Origin: Escherichia coli
Lineage (GTDB): Bacteria; Pseudomonadota; Gammaproteobacteria; Enterobacterales; Enterobacteriaceae
Strand: one strand, 5' to 3'
Assembly (NCBI RefSeq): GCF_003334355.1
Contig: NZ_QOWP01000002.1
Length of the DNA: 64,000 bases
Of this stretch, positions 28,738-38,015 are shown in pieces. Under the pieces are notes generated by a model that was not told the origin of the DNA, did no database searches, and saw only the letters and a list, made by a program, of their open reading frames with translations. Within the stretch, counting starts at the first letter, position 1; each line of letters begins with the position of its first letter. A program made the translations under genes and the position numbers.

Positions 28738-29514
28738 TCACCAGTCAAAACTTTTCACCAGCGTCAGCTCGCCAGCATTACGCATCGGTACAATAAATGT
28801 TTCCTGTTTCTCATTGACCGATCCTTCATCGGTGATCAGCGTCAGTTGGGCGGTGGTTAATTCCGTTTCGCTGCGTCCGCCATAGTAGTTGATATACACT
28901 TGATAGCGTCCGTGAACTGGCGCTGGCATGGCGAAAATCTCGGGTCCGTACCCCGTCGTGACATCCATATCCAGTGCACCACTGTTTTTCAGCACCGTGT
29001 TACCGTACCAGGCGTGTTCGCCATCGGGCGTGACAACATGGAGATCGAGATCGGTATTGTCCGTATCCCACGAGAGAACCAGCCGTAAACGTGCACGAAT
29101 CGTTCCTGTACCCGGCGTTGAGTAAAACTGCATTTTTTGTCGGCTTTGCCCATCCGGGCTGATGACCTGCACGCTGTTGCTGCCTTCAGTGAAAATATAA
29201 GGGCGTGCAAATGAACCATCGGATTCAATTCTCTGCGGCATACTGGCACCGTTGACCACCAGCCGGCCCTGCTGAACTTTACCCGCCGCAGCATAATTCT
29301 TTATTTTGCCGCGGATCTGCGCTGAGATATTTTGATCATCTGCCATGTTGACGGACGACGCCGGGTAATTGATCGATTGTGAAAAACTGGCATCTTCGCC
29401 CTCTACCGGATGCCAGCCAGAGAGCGGTGCGTCAATCTCGACTTCCTGCACACCTTCACTGTGAGCGACAGGCGAAAGTGCCACCAGTAACAACGGAAGA
29501 AAAATCTTTCGCAT
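28738..29514 (-). CDS. yfaP: Exported protein YfaP (DUF2135 family), last gene of the yfaA-T-S-Q-P operon
   Basis: 258-aa ORF with Sec signal peptide (MRKIFLPLLLVALSPVAHSEG); 4 nt downstream of yfaQ. Confidence 0.85.
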   Translation of the reverse strand: MRKIFLPLLLVALSPVAHSEGVQEVEIDAPLSGWHPVEGEDASFSQSINYPASSVNMADDQNISAQIRGKIKNYAAAGKVQQGRLVVNGASMPQRIESDGSFARPYIFTEGSNSVQVISPDGQSRQKMQFYSTPGTGTIRARLRLVLSWDTDNTDLDLHVVTPDGEHAWYGNTVLKNSGALDMDVTTGYGPEIFAMPAPVHGRYQVYINYYGGRSETELTTAQLTLITDEGSVNEKQETFIVPMRNAGELTLVKSFDW

Positions 29515-29518
29515 AGCA

Positions 29519-31168
29519 TTAGTCCATTAATAATTGTCGGGTCAGCGTTTCGATATAGTTCTCATCAAGCCCGGTGGGATAACCATCAAAGGCCAGGTGC
29601 AGATACTCATGGGTTAAATCCAGCCGATCCTGAAGCGTAAAGAAGTTACGAATAAACAGCCGTTTCTGCTGCCGATCGGTATAGGGGAAACCTGAGACTA
29701 AACGGCAAACCGCAAACACGTCTGGTTCGTTGTACCCCGTCTCAGCTTGTAATATACGCCGCCACTGCGGCATTTTTTTCGCCAGCCAGGCTTTCGCTTT
29801 GGGTAATAACTGGCAGGTTGAGCGTGGCGCTCCCCAGCGGCTAAGGCTGTTGTCGGGATAAGCAAACGCGAGTATCTGGTCGTAACGCTCTCCCTGCCCC
29901 GCCTGGGCCGTGGCTTGCCGCCAGGAAAGCGTCCCTTCGGTAGCGCGACTGCCATGATAATGAACCGGATCGCCCGCATAGATGAGATCCTGCGTCCAGG
30001 CGGCCATCGTTCGCGCCCCCGTCGTAGCTGGCGAAGCCGAAACACGCTGCGTGGCGCTGCTGTCAGGGATGGTCAGGCAATCGCCTTCCCGATTGGCGTT
30101 TTGCTGTAAAAAAGTGCGAATCGCCACGGTCATGGCTTTCGCTGCCTCAGGGGGCGTACTTTTCGCCTCGCGATCCAGAACTCTGGCAACGTACTCTTCA
30201 CGATCGAGATGTGACTGCAATTTCAGTTTGCCCTTTTCGCTCAGTAAGGTCGTCTCACCGTGGCTGACAAACGTAATGTGGTTACCATTAGTAAACGTCA
30301 CACGATAGCGCCCATTAAGTACGCCGGGTTTTACTGCCGTCGTACTCTTTTCCGCTGTGATTTTCTTCAGCGGATAGCGGGCAAACAGCTCCACCTCTAC
30401 ACATTGCCCACTGGCAACCTGCGTCGGCACTGGCAAAACCCGATTAAGCACCGTCGCATAACGGGTTAGTACCGTTTTGCTGGTGCCACTGCCAGTAACC
30501 CACAGCGGTGTACCATCGGTTAACCAGCCAGCAAAACCACCCTGGCGGATTTCCTGTTTATCATCGGCAAACCAGCTCCAGGTTTTCACCCGTACCCGAC
30601 TACCGAGCATGGATGCGACACCGATTTTCGCCTCGTCCAGCACCACATCCAGTAAGACTTCCTGAGCTTTGTTTTGCGCAGGTAACGTCGCTAATGAATC
30701 GAGCAGCGATTTAACCGTTACCGAGGTTTCTGGCTTCAGCGTTGTAAGAGACGCTAACCACGCAGGTGCCTGACGCTGTTGCCAGTATTGCCCCCACACA
30801 TCTGCGCCAATATGCAACCGCTGCGGCGCAAAATAGAGCCCACAGGAACGTACCAGCGCGGTATCGCGCGTTATGCTCTCCCCAGCCTGACAACAATAAA
30901 CCTCTTCCGGGGAGTTTCCGCGACACTGGTAGGGCTGCTCCGGTTGATGGGTATCCTCCAGCCAGGCGTAAACATACAGTTTCCACAAACTCCCTAACGG
31001 CGTGGTGAGCGAGTCAGGTAATGCTGAGACTTTGGTCACGCCTGATGACGACAGCTGATACAGTTGATCGTGCTGCGCACCGCGCAGCACCAGTTGTAAC
31101 GGCGTCTCCTCCGCAAGCGTTGGCAGAGTAACCAACGCCAATAGCCAGACGATTCTGCGCCAGTTCAC
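29519..31168 (-). CDS. yfaQ: Exported protein YfaQ (DUF2300 family)
   Basis: 549-aa ORF with signal peptide (MNWRRIVWLLALVTLPTLAEE); abuts the yfaS stop. Confidence 0.85.
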   Translation of the reverse strand: MNWRRIVWLLALVTLPTLAEETPLQLVLRGAQHDQLYQLSSSGVTKVSALPDSLTTPLGSLWKLYVYAWLEDTHQPEQPYQCRGNSPEEVYCCQAGESITRDTALVRSCGLYFAPQRLHIGADVWGQYWQQRQAPAWLASLTTLKPETSVTVKSLLDSLATLPAQNKAQEVLLDVVLDEAKIGVASMLGSRVRVKTWSWFADDKQEIRQGGFAGWLTDGTPLWVTGSGTSKTVLTRYATVLNRVLPVPTQVASGQCVEVELFARYPLKKITAEKSTTAVKPGVLNGRYRVTFTNGNHITFVSHGETTLLSEKGKLKLQSHLDREEYVARVLDREAKSTPPEAAKAMTVAIRTFLQQNANREGDCLTIPDSSATQRVSASPATTGARTMAAWTQDLIYAGDPVHYHGSRATEGTLSWRQATAQAGQGERYDQILAFAYPDNSLSRWGAPRSTCQLLPKAKAWLAKKMPQWRRILQAETGYNEPDVFAVCRLVSGFPYTDRQQKRLFIRNFFTLQDRLDLTHEYLHLAFDGYPTGLDENYIETLTRQLLMD

Positions 31169-35773: not shown

Positions 35774-36330
35774 CGGGTGTCCTTCCATGTCATAAGTTGT
35801 TGCAGACTGACTGCGCGCATTCCGTTGTCAGTTTTCGTGGCGCTTCCGGTGTGGTAGATGACGTAACGCCCCATCCAGACCATTAAGTGCTGGGCATCGC
35901 CCTGATCGAAAAAAATCATATCGCCAGGCAGCGCCTGGTTTATGTCCTGGCCAATAAACTGGCTGTTGTACTGAATCAAATTAATCGCGGTCACGTAGGG
36001 GCCGGTTTTCCCGTTCCCCTGATTCCAGTTTTGTGCCAGTTGACGCTGTTCAGGTGTTAGCGTCATCTCTGGCGGCAAATACTGGTTAGATAAACCGTTA
36101 CTTTTTAGCCATTTACTGTCGTGAACTTTCAGCGTCTCGTTCGCCGCAAATCGCACCAGGCCCGCACAATCCTGCTGATACCAGCGTGGACTTGGCCCCT
36201 GGCGGAGCTGTTCTTGTGCAATGCGTACAAACCAGGCGCGAAACAGCCCGGCTTGTTCGACATTCAGCATTTCGCTATGGGCAACAACACAACACAGCCA
36301 GCAAATCAGCGCCAGCAGCCCGTGCCTCAT
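35707..36330 (-). CDS. yfaT: Exported protein YfaT (DUF1175 family)
   Basis: 207-aa protein from the internal ATG ([20 protein letters not shown] signal peptide); start overlaps yfaA stop (ATGA); 3' end overlaps yfaS start by about 67 nt. Confidence 0.8.
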
Positions 36331-38015
36331 AGCGGCTGCCAGGTTATGGGTAGCCACTGCCAGGCGGCACCGGGTTCCATCTGGGCCAGCTTCATGACAT
36401 AACGCGGTTGTTGAGATAAAGCGTCCAGCTTCGGCATTAATAAAGTTTGTGCGGCGTTATAAAAAACCGGTTCGAGATTCTTCGGCAGACTGGTCAACGT
36501 TTCGTTACGCAGCAGTTTCGCCACGCCTTGTGGATTGATATAGAGCGGAACGATGCCATCAGTGGGTATTACATCCACCATTGCCGGGCGGTTTTTATTC
36601 AGTGTTTGCAGGGCGTTATTAACCAGCGTGTCATCGAGGGAGAAAAGCAGCGTTTTGTTTTGCATCGCCAGCGACACGCGGAAAAAATAATCCGACATTA
36701 ATTGATCGGGTTGCGCCGCCTGCGCTTTCGGATACTGACCGTATCGGGAACTCACTTCGCGACGCCAGATTTGCGCTTCGCCCTGCTGAGTCTGGCTTAT
36801 CGGCAAAACACCTTCTGGCGCTTTGCTTTCGTGCGCACCAATATTTTGCGTAAACAGTTTCCCTGGCAATTGCGCCTGTTCGGCAGTGCCATCAAACTGA
36901 CCGACAAACAGCGGGGTTTGCAATTTTGAGTCTTCATACCAGCACAGCCCCGCGGCACCGTCTAACGCCCCATTCAGCTTGTCGTTTTCCTGGCTGATGT
37001 GCGAAAGCATCTCTTCGGCAATACCGTGTGAATACGGCACCGCCACACAGAAGCTGGCCCCGGCAGGCATACTGTTCCAGACCGGCGTAAAATCGAAACT
37101 GGTATCTACGCTGGCGGATTCATCATTTAACGCCACAAAACTGTGCCAGCCGTCGTTACCCATTTCGAAGCGTACGCCAGCAAAAGAAGGCATTAACCGC
37201 TGGTAGCCAAAACCCAGCAACCTGGCGCTGACCACGATGCGCTGGCGTACTGGCGTTTTTTCAGCAGCACGCTCTTCCAGGCCAAAGCTTGCTTGCCAGC
37301 GTTTTTTGCCGCTCAACAAATCACCTGCGATCGCCGTGGCTTCGGTATCCTGCTGATCATCTTTAAACAGCATATCCGTGCTGGAAAACACTAGCATCTT
37401 GTCCTGATATGTCGCGAACATCAGAGCGTTATTGCCGTTATAGCGCAACTGATAAACAGGAACAGTTTCACTATTTATCTTGATGCTACTGATTTCCGTT
37501 TTGCTTAACTGGCTGTCGCTGGTAGCGGCAAACAACAATGGCTCCAGCAGTTTGCTTAAACCACTGCGCTGGATCAGCACCATATAATGTGAAAGATGGC
37601 CTTGTTTATCGTGCCACAGCGCTGCCTGCGCGGGCTGATCTAAGAGTGACGAAAAGAGCTTATCTTTCAGCGTGAGATCGTGTTCATAGACAATACGACG
37701 AATGCTGCCTTCAATGCCCAGACGATCGGCATGATTCTGATAATAGAAAACGAAATCTTCGCTCAGAACATCGTGGAGAAACGGAATGGTGAGGAGATCT
37801 TTGGGAAGCTGGCTCAGAGAGTCGCTGTCGAGAAAGAGGTCCGGCTCATTGAGATCGATTTGCAGATTGTTGTGCACCACCAGCGGCGACAACGTTTTTT
37901 CTGGCCCACTGCCAGCATATTGCAACGCCCAGACGCCAGCGGAAAGCAGTGCTATTGCGCCAAAACCTACAAGACCATAGAACCGCCAGCCTTTCGCCTT
38001 TTTTTCACCACTCAT
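36327..38015 (-). CDS. yfaA: Membrane-anchored protein YfaA (DUF2138 family), first gene of the operon
   Basis: 562-aa protein from the internal ATG with AAGGA SD ([33 protein letters not shown]-terminal TM anchor); tracked ORF extends 16 codons further upstream. Confidence 0.8.

Follow-up and report, generated by a model that had tools for sequence, protein, structure and literature searches.

What does Escherichia coli do with a protein of the alpha-2-macroglobulin (A2M) family that is encoded together with four partners named after domains of unknown function (DUF)? The question is raised by yfaA-yfaT-yfaS-yfaQ-yfaP, a five-gene unit on the minus strand of a 64,000-nucleotide stretch of E. 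coli DNA (contig NZ_QOWP01000002.1; here, the window), of which the part from 28600 to 38200 is 100% identical to E. coli strain PSS-12 by genome comparison. The original prediction, made from the window alone, regarded this unit as the least characterized one. In fact, it is a known and annotated system (Type II bacterial A2M) rather than an uncharacterized kind, because its ortholog, the mag operon of Pseudomonas aeruginosa, has been the subject of published functional work. With a probability of about 0.65, we read yfa as an inner-membrane-tethered macroglobulin trap with peptidoglycan-recognizing partners that defends the periplasm against foreign hydrolases. As the system itself is already known, only the domain assignment of YfaQ and the heterogeneity of the thioester site are possibly new to specialists.

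Orthology with the Pseudomonas mag operon

The list of open reading frames (ORFs) of the minus strand contains five co-directional and tightly packed genes, as had been predicted.

36327..38015, minus strand: yfaA, 562 amino acids (ORF 36327-38063, annotated start at 38015)
35707..36330, minus strand: yfaT, 207 amino acids (ORF 35707-36357, annotated start at 36330)
31169..35773, minus strand: yfaS, 1534 amino acids, uninterrupted in the window (ORF 31169-35788, ATG start at 35773)
29519..31168, minus strand: yfaQ, 549 amino acids, GTG start
28738..29514, minus strand: yfaP, 258 amino acids

Reading of the junction sequences bears out the proposed packing: the yfaA stop and the yfaT start overlap as ATGA, the yfaS stop directly precedes the yfaQ GTG (0-nt gap), and yfaQ and yfaP are spaced by 4 nt. 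This packing is not due to chance, because 80 species-representative genomes and also distant metagenomic loci show the same gene order and tight spacing. The genomes come from a survey of one genome per GTDB species with patterns derived from a MagC alignment; it turned up relatives in 335 stretches, and we retained the best 80 loci.

The parallel with mag that the original prediction had drawn proves to be true orthology on the strength of the identity to MagC (75%), the gene order, and the product sizes, which agree with the published Mag table (Table 2). Orthology of yfa to mag is near certain. The five genes are the equivalents of magBCDEF (YfaA is MagB, YfaT is MagC, YfaS is MagD, YfaQ is MagE, and YfaP is MagF), with identities to the Pseudomonas orthologs of 45% for YfaA, 72% for YfaT, 53% for YfaS, and 54% each for YfaQ and YfaP. 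All 72 Pseudomonas loci have the order YfaP-like/YfaA/YfaT/YfaS/YfaQ/YfaP, that is, magABCDEF. In the published operon, MagA and MagF are paralogs (PMC3735191). YfaP is 52 to 57% identical to the trailing (MagF-type) and 38 to 42% identical to the leading (MagA-type) Pseudomonas genes, and by this measure is the MagF ortholog.

The P. aeruginosa operon (magABCDEF, PA4492-PA4487) and yfa share the gene order, the pattern of signal peptides and anchor, and the loss of the thioester Cys. However, MagA is missing from E. coli and the other Enterobacterales, which have five genes, and the thioester site reads GGVIN instead of GGVEQ. Escherichia is further distinguished by a yfaS start that has to lie 67 nt inside yfaT. 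Gac/Rsm regulation is known for mag. The six-gene architecture is thus not that of E. coli; no MagA-like YfaP paralog was found upstream of yfaA or elsewhere in the window. The five-gene form without the leading MagA paralog is found in every Enterobacterales locus among the best 80, which come from three other Escherichia species, Superficieibacter, Enterobacillus, Yersinia alsatica, and Edaphovirga.

A search of 1.84 billion representatives gave 332 clusters (E value up to 0.001), and distant DUF2138 proteins taken from it, with 26 to 29% identity to YfaA, sit in a DUF2138-MagC-A2M context. One distant metagenome locus (L086, 10001-19356) has the full five-gene order, with a single YfaP-like gene that is closer to the MagA than to the MagF type. 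Another one (L087, 2928-9750) has a three-gene form, DUF2138-MagC-A2M, which ends after the A2M gene and is followed by a convergent gene. One metagenome contig (L085, 1067-12390) carries BREX-type genes (MmeI-type methyltransferase, PglZ, and BrxL) with a DUF2138-MagC(-A2M) cluster directly downstream, a single case that could be coincidence. A PADLOC scan of all five Yfa proteins gave no match to any anti-phage defense model.

Pfam searches identify the partners as DUF2138, DUF1175, DUF2300, and DUF2135 proteins, exactly as they had been named, so that the unit has the make-up of a Type II cluster: an A2M gene with co-directional genes of these four families. YfaA matches DUF2138 along its full length and is the MagB ortholog, in which a predicted N-terminal signal-anchor helix precedes a large, presumably periplasmic scaffold. 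It is also the only one of the five proteins with a real NCBIfam model. YfaT matches DUF1175 (1e-57) and, weakly, NLPC_P60 (0.0018). Over 186 residues, it is 75% identical to the P. aeruginosa MagC structure (PDB 7BK8, E value of 9e-104), the title of which reads NlpC/P60-like, and 85 of 85 homologs carry the motifs DC[AV]GL, QHLM, and YHTG (C55, H148, and H160). Judged by sequence, YfaT is the MagC ortholog, with the NlpC/P60 fold and residues at the positions of the Cys-His-His triad. YfaP matches DUF2135 (YfaP_C, 5.6e-17) and has no PDB relative by single-sequence or profile search; its NCBIfam match to BADH is weak and below the cut-off, and it was discarded. Single-sequence PDB searches with YfaA and YfaQ likewise returned nothing significant.

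All five products had been expected to carry an N-terminal export signal or anchor, and in each of them the most hydrophobic segment is indeed N-terminal. YfaA has an anchor-like helix of 19 residues (helix predicted at residues 10 to 33). The N termini of YfaT, YfaS, YfaQ, and YfaP are signal-peptide-like and apparently cleavable (…VAHS/E, …LAKA/DD, …TLA/EE, and …VAHS/EG). The hydrophobic core of YfaS spans residues 18 to 36 and is followed by AKA/DD; its IAAC (residues 22 to 25) is lipobox-like, but the h-region is too short. All eight Cys residues of YfaQ are invariant in 40 homologs, and YfaA has two nearly invariant ones, patterns that would suit disulfide-bonded periplasmic proteins.

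Domain composition of YfaS and predicted modules of YfaQ

YfaS belongs to the A2M family, as predicted, with Pfam matches to MG2 (4.5e-19), A2M_BRD (1e-16), A2M (5e-12), and bMG10 (1e-5). A failure of domain searches to place YfaS there had been named beforehand as the outcome speaking against the prediction; it did not occur in the Pfam or the profile searches. A single-sequence PDB search gave only weak matches to CD109 (E value of 0.002) and C5. A profile of 29 YfaS homologs, on the other hand, matches ECAM/YfhM (5A42, E value of 1.2e-20) and Salmonella A2M (SaA2M, 4U48, 1e-15), as well as C5, CD109, TEP1, and human A2M. An NCBIfam match of YfaS to dextranase is weak and below the cut-off and was rejected. 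Two segments of YfaS were located by alignment to ECAM.

32552..32578, minus strand: degenerate thioester site (YfaS residues 1066-1074), PWGGVINTG, aligned with ECAM YPYGCLEQT
33149..33298, minus strand: putative bait-equivalent segment (YfaS residues 826-875), aligned with the bait stretch of ECAM 5A42; translation checked

The CxEQ thioester motif is absent from the entire YfaS, which has only 2 Cys residues. Its absence excludes covalent trapping by YfaS, not membership in the fold family. Published papers equate the mag-type operon (Type II) with a thioester-less A2M. We surveyed the ECAM-aligned position in 79 loci; in 5 of them the site pattern had no match, and these were left unscored. 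The site reads GGVEQ in 50 loci, GCVEQ, which is intact, in 14 (L009, L013, L020, L021, L023, L028, L029, L035, L036, L041, L047, L060, L061, and L062), CGVEQ in 2, and GGVIN or GGVVN in 8. The last 8 are all Enterobacterales, while most Pseudomonas loci have GGVEQ; the most eroded site of the family in this survey is that of E. coli. GCVEQ is also present in four of four distant metagenome A2Ms in the DUF2138-MagC context (L083, L086, L087, and L088). On the available sequences, the equation of Type II with thioester loss is lineage-specific: it applies to P. aeruginosa and to E. coli without extending to the whole family, and the thioester is probably ancestral in mag-type A2Ms.

The putative bait of YfaS is basic, and its columns are more conserved (0.82 to 0.88) than the YfaS mean (0.72). 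In this respect it differs from the hypervariable baits of eukaryotic A2Ms. Such conservation is unexpected for a broad-spectrum bait and may point to a dedicated cutting protease.

YfaS shares the MG2, bait-region, and A2M domains with eukaryotic A2M, complement C3 to C5, TEP, and CD109, and trapping after cleavage has been shown for MagD. By analogy with the latter, however, YfaS, which has no thioester, would be monomeric and part of a membrane-tethered bacterial complex. The Type I A2Ms that are associated with penicillin-binding protein (PBP) 1c (E. coli YfhM/ECAM-PbpC and SaA2M) belong to the same superfamily as YfaS (profile E value, rounded, of 1e-20 to 5A42). As in Type I, the yfa system would be periplasmic, tethered to the inner membrane, and coupled to a penicillin-binding fold, which is PBP1c in the former and the predicted N-terminal domain of YfaQ in the latter. 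Type I A2M, however, carries an active CLEQ thioester, is a lipoprotein, and has one partner gene, whereas YfaS has a plain signal peptide, no thioester, a separate anchor (YfaA), and four partners.

YfaQ has two Pfam DUF2300 matches (residues 84 to 205 and 412 to 532) and one SpoIID match (1.4e-5); an NCBIfam match to SpoIID_LytB (0.002) is below the cut-off and was not used. The two DUF2300 matches do not represent an internal repeat: hhalign of the two halves gives a probability of 0.7%, and in the model they lie in distinct structural contexts. As the product name used for K-12, “tandem DUF2300” is therefore misleading. An AlphaFold2 model built from 40 homologs (predicted local distance difference test score, 82) was used for a PDB structure search, and in it three modules can be delimited.

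30419..31099, minus strand: predicted PBP-, class D beta-lactamase-, or BlaR1-sensor-like domain (YfaQ residues ~24-250), with S60-L-W-K63, S108-C-G, and K195-T-W
29834..30271, minus strand: predicted SpoIID-like lytic-transglycosylase domain (YfaQ residues ~300-445), with E334 at the catalytic-Glu position
29522..29833, minus strand: C-terminal module (YfaQ residues 446-549), with H520-E-Y-L-H524 (29597-29611) and D535/E536/E540

Foldseek matches the model to OXA enzymes and BlaR1 (E value of about 1e-5). SLWK at the start of helix 59-73, SCG, and KTW on strand 192-200 show no variation in 78 of 78 homologs, one of which is distant (39% identity). SCG follows SLWK by 48 residues, which we take to be the spacing in class D enzymes. 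Both the modeled fold and the motif spacing thus assign the N-terminal domain to the penicillin-binding/serine beta-lactamase fold. In the central domain, which has a SpoIID fold in the model, the invariant E334 is the counterpart of the Glu in the …GEM… motif of SpoIID, presumably the catalytic residue.

The C-terminal module is less clear. HEYLH is shared by 78 of 78 homologs and sits on a predicted helix (512 to 526), and the invariant D535, E536, and E540 lie on the next one. The predicted order of elements (helix, three strands, HExxH helix, and acidic helix) might resemble that of small zincins. Against a zincin, the module matches no solved metalloprotease in a PDB profile search, which returned only chance matches to angiogenin, and no NCBIfam model. 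Fold searches with YfaQ are dominated by the N-terminal and SpoIID-like domains, and its isolated N- and C-terminal segments have no NCBIfam match.

From the model we infer that YfaQ/MagE, which has been published as a protein without assigned function, is a secreted, peptidoglycan-directed protein of three modules, a make-up of which we found no mention in the searchable literature. Compared with PBP1c, the predicted N-terminal domain is closer to class D beta-lactamases and BlaR sensors than to class A PBPs, and its fusion partner is a SpoIID-like domain, not a glycosyltransferase. Compared with BlaR1/MecR1, YfaQ would have a reversed domain order, a SpoIID-like insert, no transmembrane segment beyond the signal peptide, and no evident repressor target. 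Its SpoIID-like domain is compact relative to SpoIID/LytB and SleC (~145 versus ~270 residues) and is found in a three-module protein of a Gram-negative periplasmic system with no sporulation context.

Role of the unit and competing explanations

The biochemical role had been described as unresolved. This holds in part, but for Pseudomonas, protease trapping, anchoring by MagB, and protection from type VI secretion system (T6SS) effectors have been published. MagD is periplasmic and associated with the inner membrane, copurifies with MagA, MagB, and MagF, and undergoes processing from 165 to 100 kDa; RetS/RsmA control the operon (PMC3735191). MagD holds tobacco etch virus (TEV) protease noncovalently after an engineered bait is cut, and MagB is needed for the stability, membrane localization, and processing of MagD (PMC5764988). 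Deletion of magE results in abnormal, unprocessed forms of MagD, and neither MagC nor MagE forms a stable binary complex with MagD (PMC5764988). In 2025, a CRISPR interference screen with follow-up showed that the mag operon, and magD in particular, protects P. aeruginosa against VgrG3 and Tae1, two T6SS effectors that target peptidoglycan (PMC12663445).

By analogy, YfaA (MagB) would be a single-pass inner-membrane protein that tethers and stabilizes YfaS, and YfaS a thioester-less periplasmic A2M cage that, after bait cleavage, holds the attacking enzyme noncovalently. YfaP (MagF) would bind the A2M 1:1, and YfaT (MagC) would serve as an NlpC/P60-fold module that binds peptidoglycan. The PBP-like, SpoIID-like, and HExxH modules predicted for YfaQ (MagE) would also be directed at peptidoglycan. 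The unit as a whole would neutralize foreign periplasmic hydrolases at the interface of inner membrane and cell wall, namely, peptidoglycan-targeting T6SS effectors and possibly host proteases or lysozyme. Defense would be coupled to the recognition or repair of damaged peptidoglycan, with a parallel in the pairing of Type I A2M and PBP1c. A defense role in E. coli is what we infer from the Pseudomonas system.

The E. coli copy appears to be maintained. The locus is present in 5,426 of 5,426 complete E. coli genomes; at least 80% of the query is covered in 5,179, while about 5% of the genomes cover less than 80%. The ratio of nonsynonymous to synonymous substitution rates (dN/dS) is 0.02 to 0.13 for all five genes of the window against E. 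whittamii, E. albertii, and Superficieibacter (dS of 0.26 to 3; 0.26 to 0.8 among Escherichia species alone). In strain K-12 MG1655, yfaS (b4500) is annotated as a pseudogene, caused by a single nonsense codon.

31670..31672, minus strand: yfaS codon W1368, Trp in the window and stop (W1368*) in K-12 MG1655

The window allele differs from that of K-12 by 60 nt and 18 codons. Across the genus, purifying selection acts on the yfa genes, and the lesion of K-12 appears to be a loss at the level of the strain. Separately, yfaA appears split into two ORFs of 346 and 216 amino acids in E. albertii NBRC 107761 (L005), possibly as a pseudogene, and ISApl1 (IS30-like) is inserted within the yfa locus in two E. 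coli genomes (NZ_AP021891.1 and NZ_AP027745.1).

Several points weigh against a hydrolase trap with peptidoglycan-recognizing partners, the K-12 lesion among them. The mechanism of protection from T6SS effectors has been left open by its authors (PMC12663445), and one of the two effectors, VgrG3, is a glycoside hydrolase rather than a protease. MagE reportedly fractionates with the cytoplasm and does not stably bind MagD (PMC3735191, PMC5764988); the modules of YfaQ fit poorly with a cytoplasmic MagE but well with the need for MagD maturation and with the link of the system to peptidoglycan. DUF1175/MagC is classed as a catalytically inactive, peptidoglycan-binding relative of NlpC/P60 (PMC10318531, citing FEBS Lett 2021). 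Loss of catalytic residues does not explain the reported inactivity, because C55, H148, and H160 are invariant in the 85 homologs. A promoter scan found no sigma-70-like site upstream of yfaA, and our search of the searchable literature found no experimental study of the E. coli yfa genes. Finally, the mechanism in E. coli may differ in detail, given that MagA is missing and the thioester site is the most degenerate one.

The A2M domain set and the bait-like segment of YfaS would also be compatible with a host colonization factor, in which YfaS serves chiefly to capture proteases of the host (for example, neutrophil elastase or those of the gut) once they pass a damaged outer membrane, with partners that stabilize and anchor it and have no role at the peptidoglycan. 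We consider this unlikely. Three of the four partners point to peptidoglycan (YfaT by its NlpC/P60 fold, YfaQ by its PBP-like and SpoIID-like domains), the family occurs commonly in pseudomonads of soil and plants and in metagenomes from the environment, a bait conserved above average is ill suited to a broad spectrum of proteases, and bacterial T6SS effectors are the only challenge for which a clean phenotype has been seen to date (PMC12663445). Alternatively, the unit could be a cell wall remodeling or repair machine, in which YfaQ (transpeptidase-like plus lytic transglycosylase) and YfaT (endopeptidase-like) do the chemistry, YfaS is a scaffold or regulator instead of a trap, and YfaS together with YfaA positions them at the inner membrane. 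The invariant catalytic-type residues (S60/K63, E334, and HExxH of YfaQ and C55/H148/H160 of YfaT) are consistent with such a machine, as are the loss of the thioester in many lineages, by which covalent trapping is shown to be dispensable, the altered chlorhexidine tolerance of a magD deletion mutant (PMC12663445), and the genetic tie of Type I A2M to the peptidoglycan synthase PBP1c (PMC5764988). However, MagD does trap a protease after bait cleavage and forms no stable complex with MagE (PMC5764988), the three-gene form of L087 without YfaQ and YfaP implies that the YfaQ enzyme is not part of the core, and MagC is reported to be inactive on peptidoglycan (PMC10318531). We rate a remodeling machine as rather improbable.

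Loss of function altogether, with yfa as a cryptic or decaying, horizontally acquired island that does nothing in present-day E. coli, would account for the K-12 nonsense codon, the split yfaA of E. albertii, the two ISApl1-bearing strains, the ~5% of genomes with less than 80% coverage, and the lack of a clear promoter. The patchy distribution in Enterobacterales and the high identity to Pseudomonas would fit such an island as well. Yet dN/dS stays at 0.02 to 0.13 in all five genes across Escherichia at a dS of 0.26 to 0.8, the locus is found in every complete genome and near-complete in 5,179, and every motif residue is kept; we regard decay as very improbable. Our preferred reading remains the tethered macroglobulin trap with peptidoglycan-recognizing partners.

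Within that trap, a further proposal, which we offer as a long shot, makes YfaQ/MagE the activating enzyme: as a periplasmic, BlaR1-like sensor of damage with fused effector domains, it would sense cut or exposed peptidoglycan, and its invariant HExxH module would cut the unusually conserved bait-like segment of YfaS/MagD. If this were true, stem peptides and denuded glycan strands would be the signals recognized by the PBP-like and SpoIID-like domains, and the 165-to-100-kDa processing that is blocked in the magE deletion would be the cut of the bait by YfaQ/MagE. The macroglobulin would then be armed by an endogenous protease upon cell wall injury and not by the attacker. A corollary would be that the thioester is ancestral in mag-type A2Ms and was repeatedly lost.

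Bacterial A2Ms are a form of periplasmic innate immunity. The E. coli copy, present in every complete genome examined and subject to purifying selection, places one of them in the most tractable organism; we conjecture that the K-12 nonsense allele is one reason why the searchable literature holds no E. coli study. The YfaQ/MagE modules and the retention of the thioester motif in many mag-type macroglobulins make the open questions of the mag system, its mechanism and the roles of MagC and MagE, directly testable.

Start of yfaS, unit boundaries, and neighboring features

The predicted 67-nt overlap of yfaT and yfaS stands if yfaS begins at the ATG at 35773 (1,534 amino acids, the K-12 annotation), and not if other starts are used. 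The alternatives are an ATG at 35788 and a GTG at 35683, the latter being used by the RefSeq annotation pipeline PGAP for the 100% identical strain. The PGAP start lies 90 nt downstream of ATG 35773 and would give a protein of 1,504 amino acids and a gap of 23 nt to yfaT. We rejected it: the product would begin V-G-T-G-L-A-K-A, with the hydrophobic core of the signal peptide cut away, so that the PGAP start is probably wrong. A Shine-Dalgarno sequence precedes ATG 35773.

35780..35786, minus strand: GGAAGGA Shine-Dalgarno sequence, 6 nt before yfaS ATG 35773, within the W-K-D codons of yfaT

The GGAAGGA/W-K-D block is nearly invariant across the 80 loci. Most Pseudomonas loci have a Met at codon 27 of the maximal yfaS ORF, which creates an ATGA overlap with the yfaT stop and leaves a signal peptide of ~20 residues, in agreement with the 21 to 26 residues published for MagD (PMC5764988). 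In Escherichia, codon 27 is ATA and the yfaT stop is TAG. Because the Pseudomonas-type ATG reads ATA, Escherichia yfaS must start upstream, inside yfaT. From these sequence features, ATG 35773 is the best start model for yfaS, and it remains a model.

The genes of the neighborhood are, in order, atoDAEB (plus strand), yfaP-yfaQ-yfaS-yfaT-yfaA (minus), gyrA (minus), and ubiG (plus). The unit spans 28738-38015 on the minus strand and is bounded on one side by the gyrA terminator and on the other by a bidirectional terminator, which it shares with atoB.

38087..38116, minus strand: gyrA intrinsic terminator, hairpin AAAAGTCCAGGC-TGCA-AAGTCTGGGCTTTT followed by a U-tract; upstream limit of the unit
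28670..28704, both strands: bidirectional terminator hairpin AAAACGCCCGATA…TATCGGGCGTTTTT between the convergent yfaP and atoB

The distance between gyrA and yfaA is 148 nt, and the RNA fold of this intergenic region has a z score of -4.9. The promoter scan gave two matches, both internal to the unit and fewer than expected by chance. Terminator-like sites within the unit (14, versus 11.7 expected in shuffled sequence) are not above chance, and an Rfam scan of the yfa locus found no RNA family. Between the gyrA terminator and the yfaA start (38016-38086, minus strand), there is a third stable hairpin, GGGCACGG…CTGTGCCC, and the Shine-Dalgarno context of yfaA, ACACAAGGAAUGU, is similar to a GGA site for CsrA/RsmA. 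In Pseudomonas, RsmA targets the magA leader. Because of this and the GGA-like context of yfaA, control of yfa by CsrA is worth considering.

Elsewhere in the window, Rfam identifies elements not related to yfa, namely, the small RNA MicF (14454-14547, plus strand) and six naRNA4 elements of the repetitive extragenic palindrome/bacterial interspersed mosaic element (REP/BIME) type (5988-6297, plus strand; 18208-18398, minus strand; and 48578-48648, minus strand).

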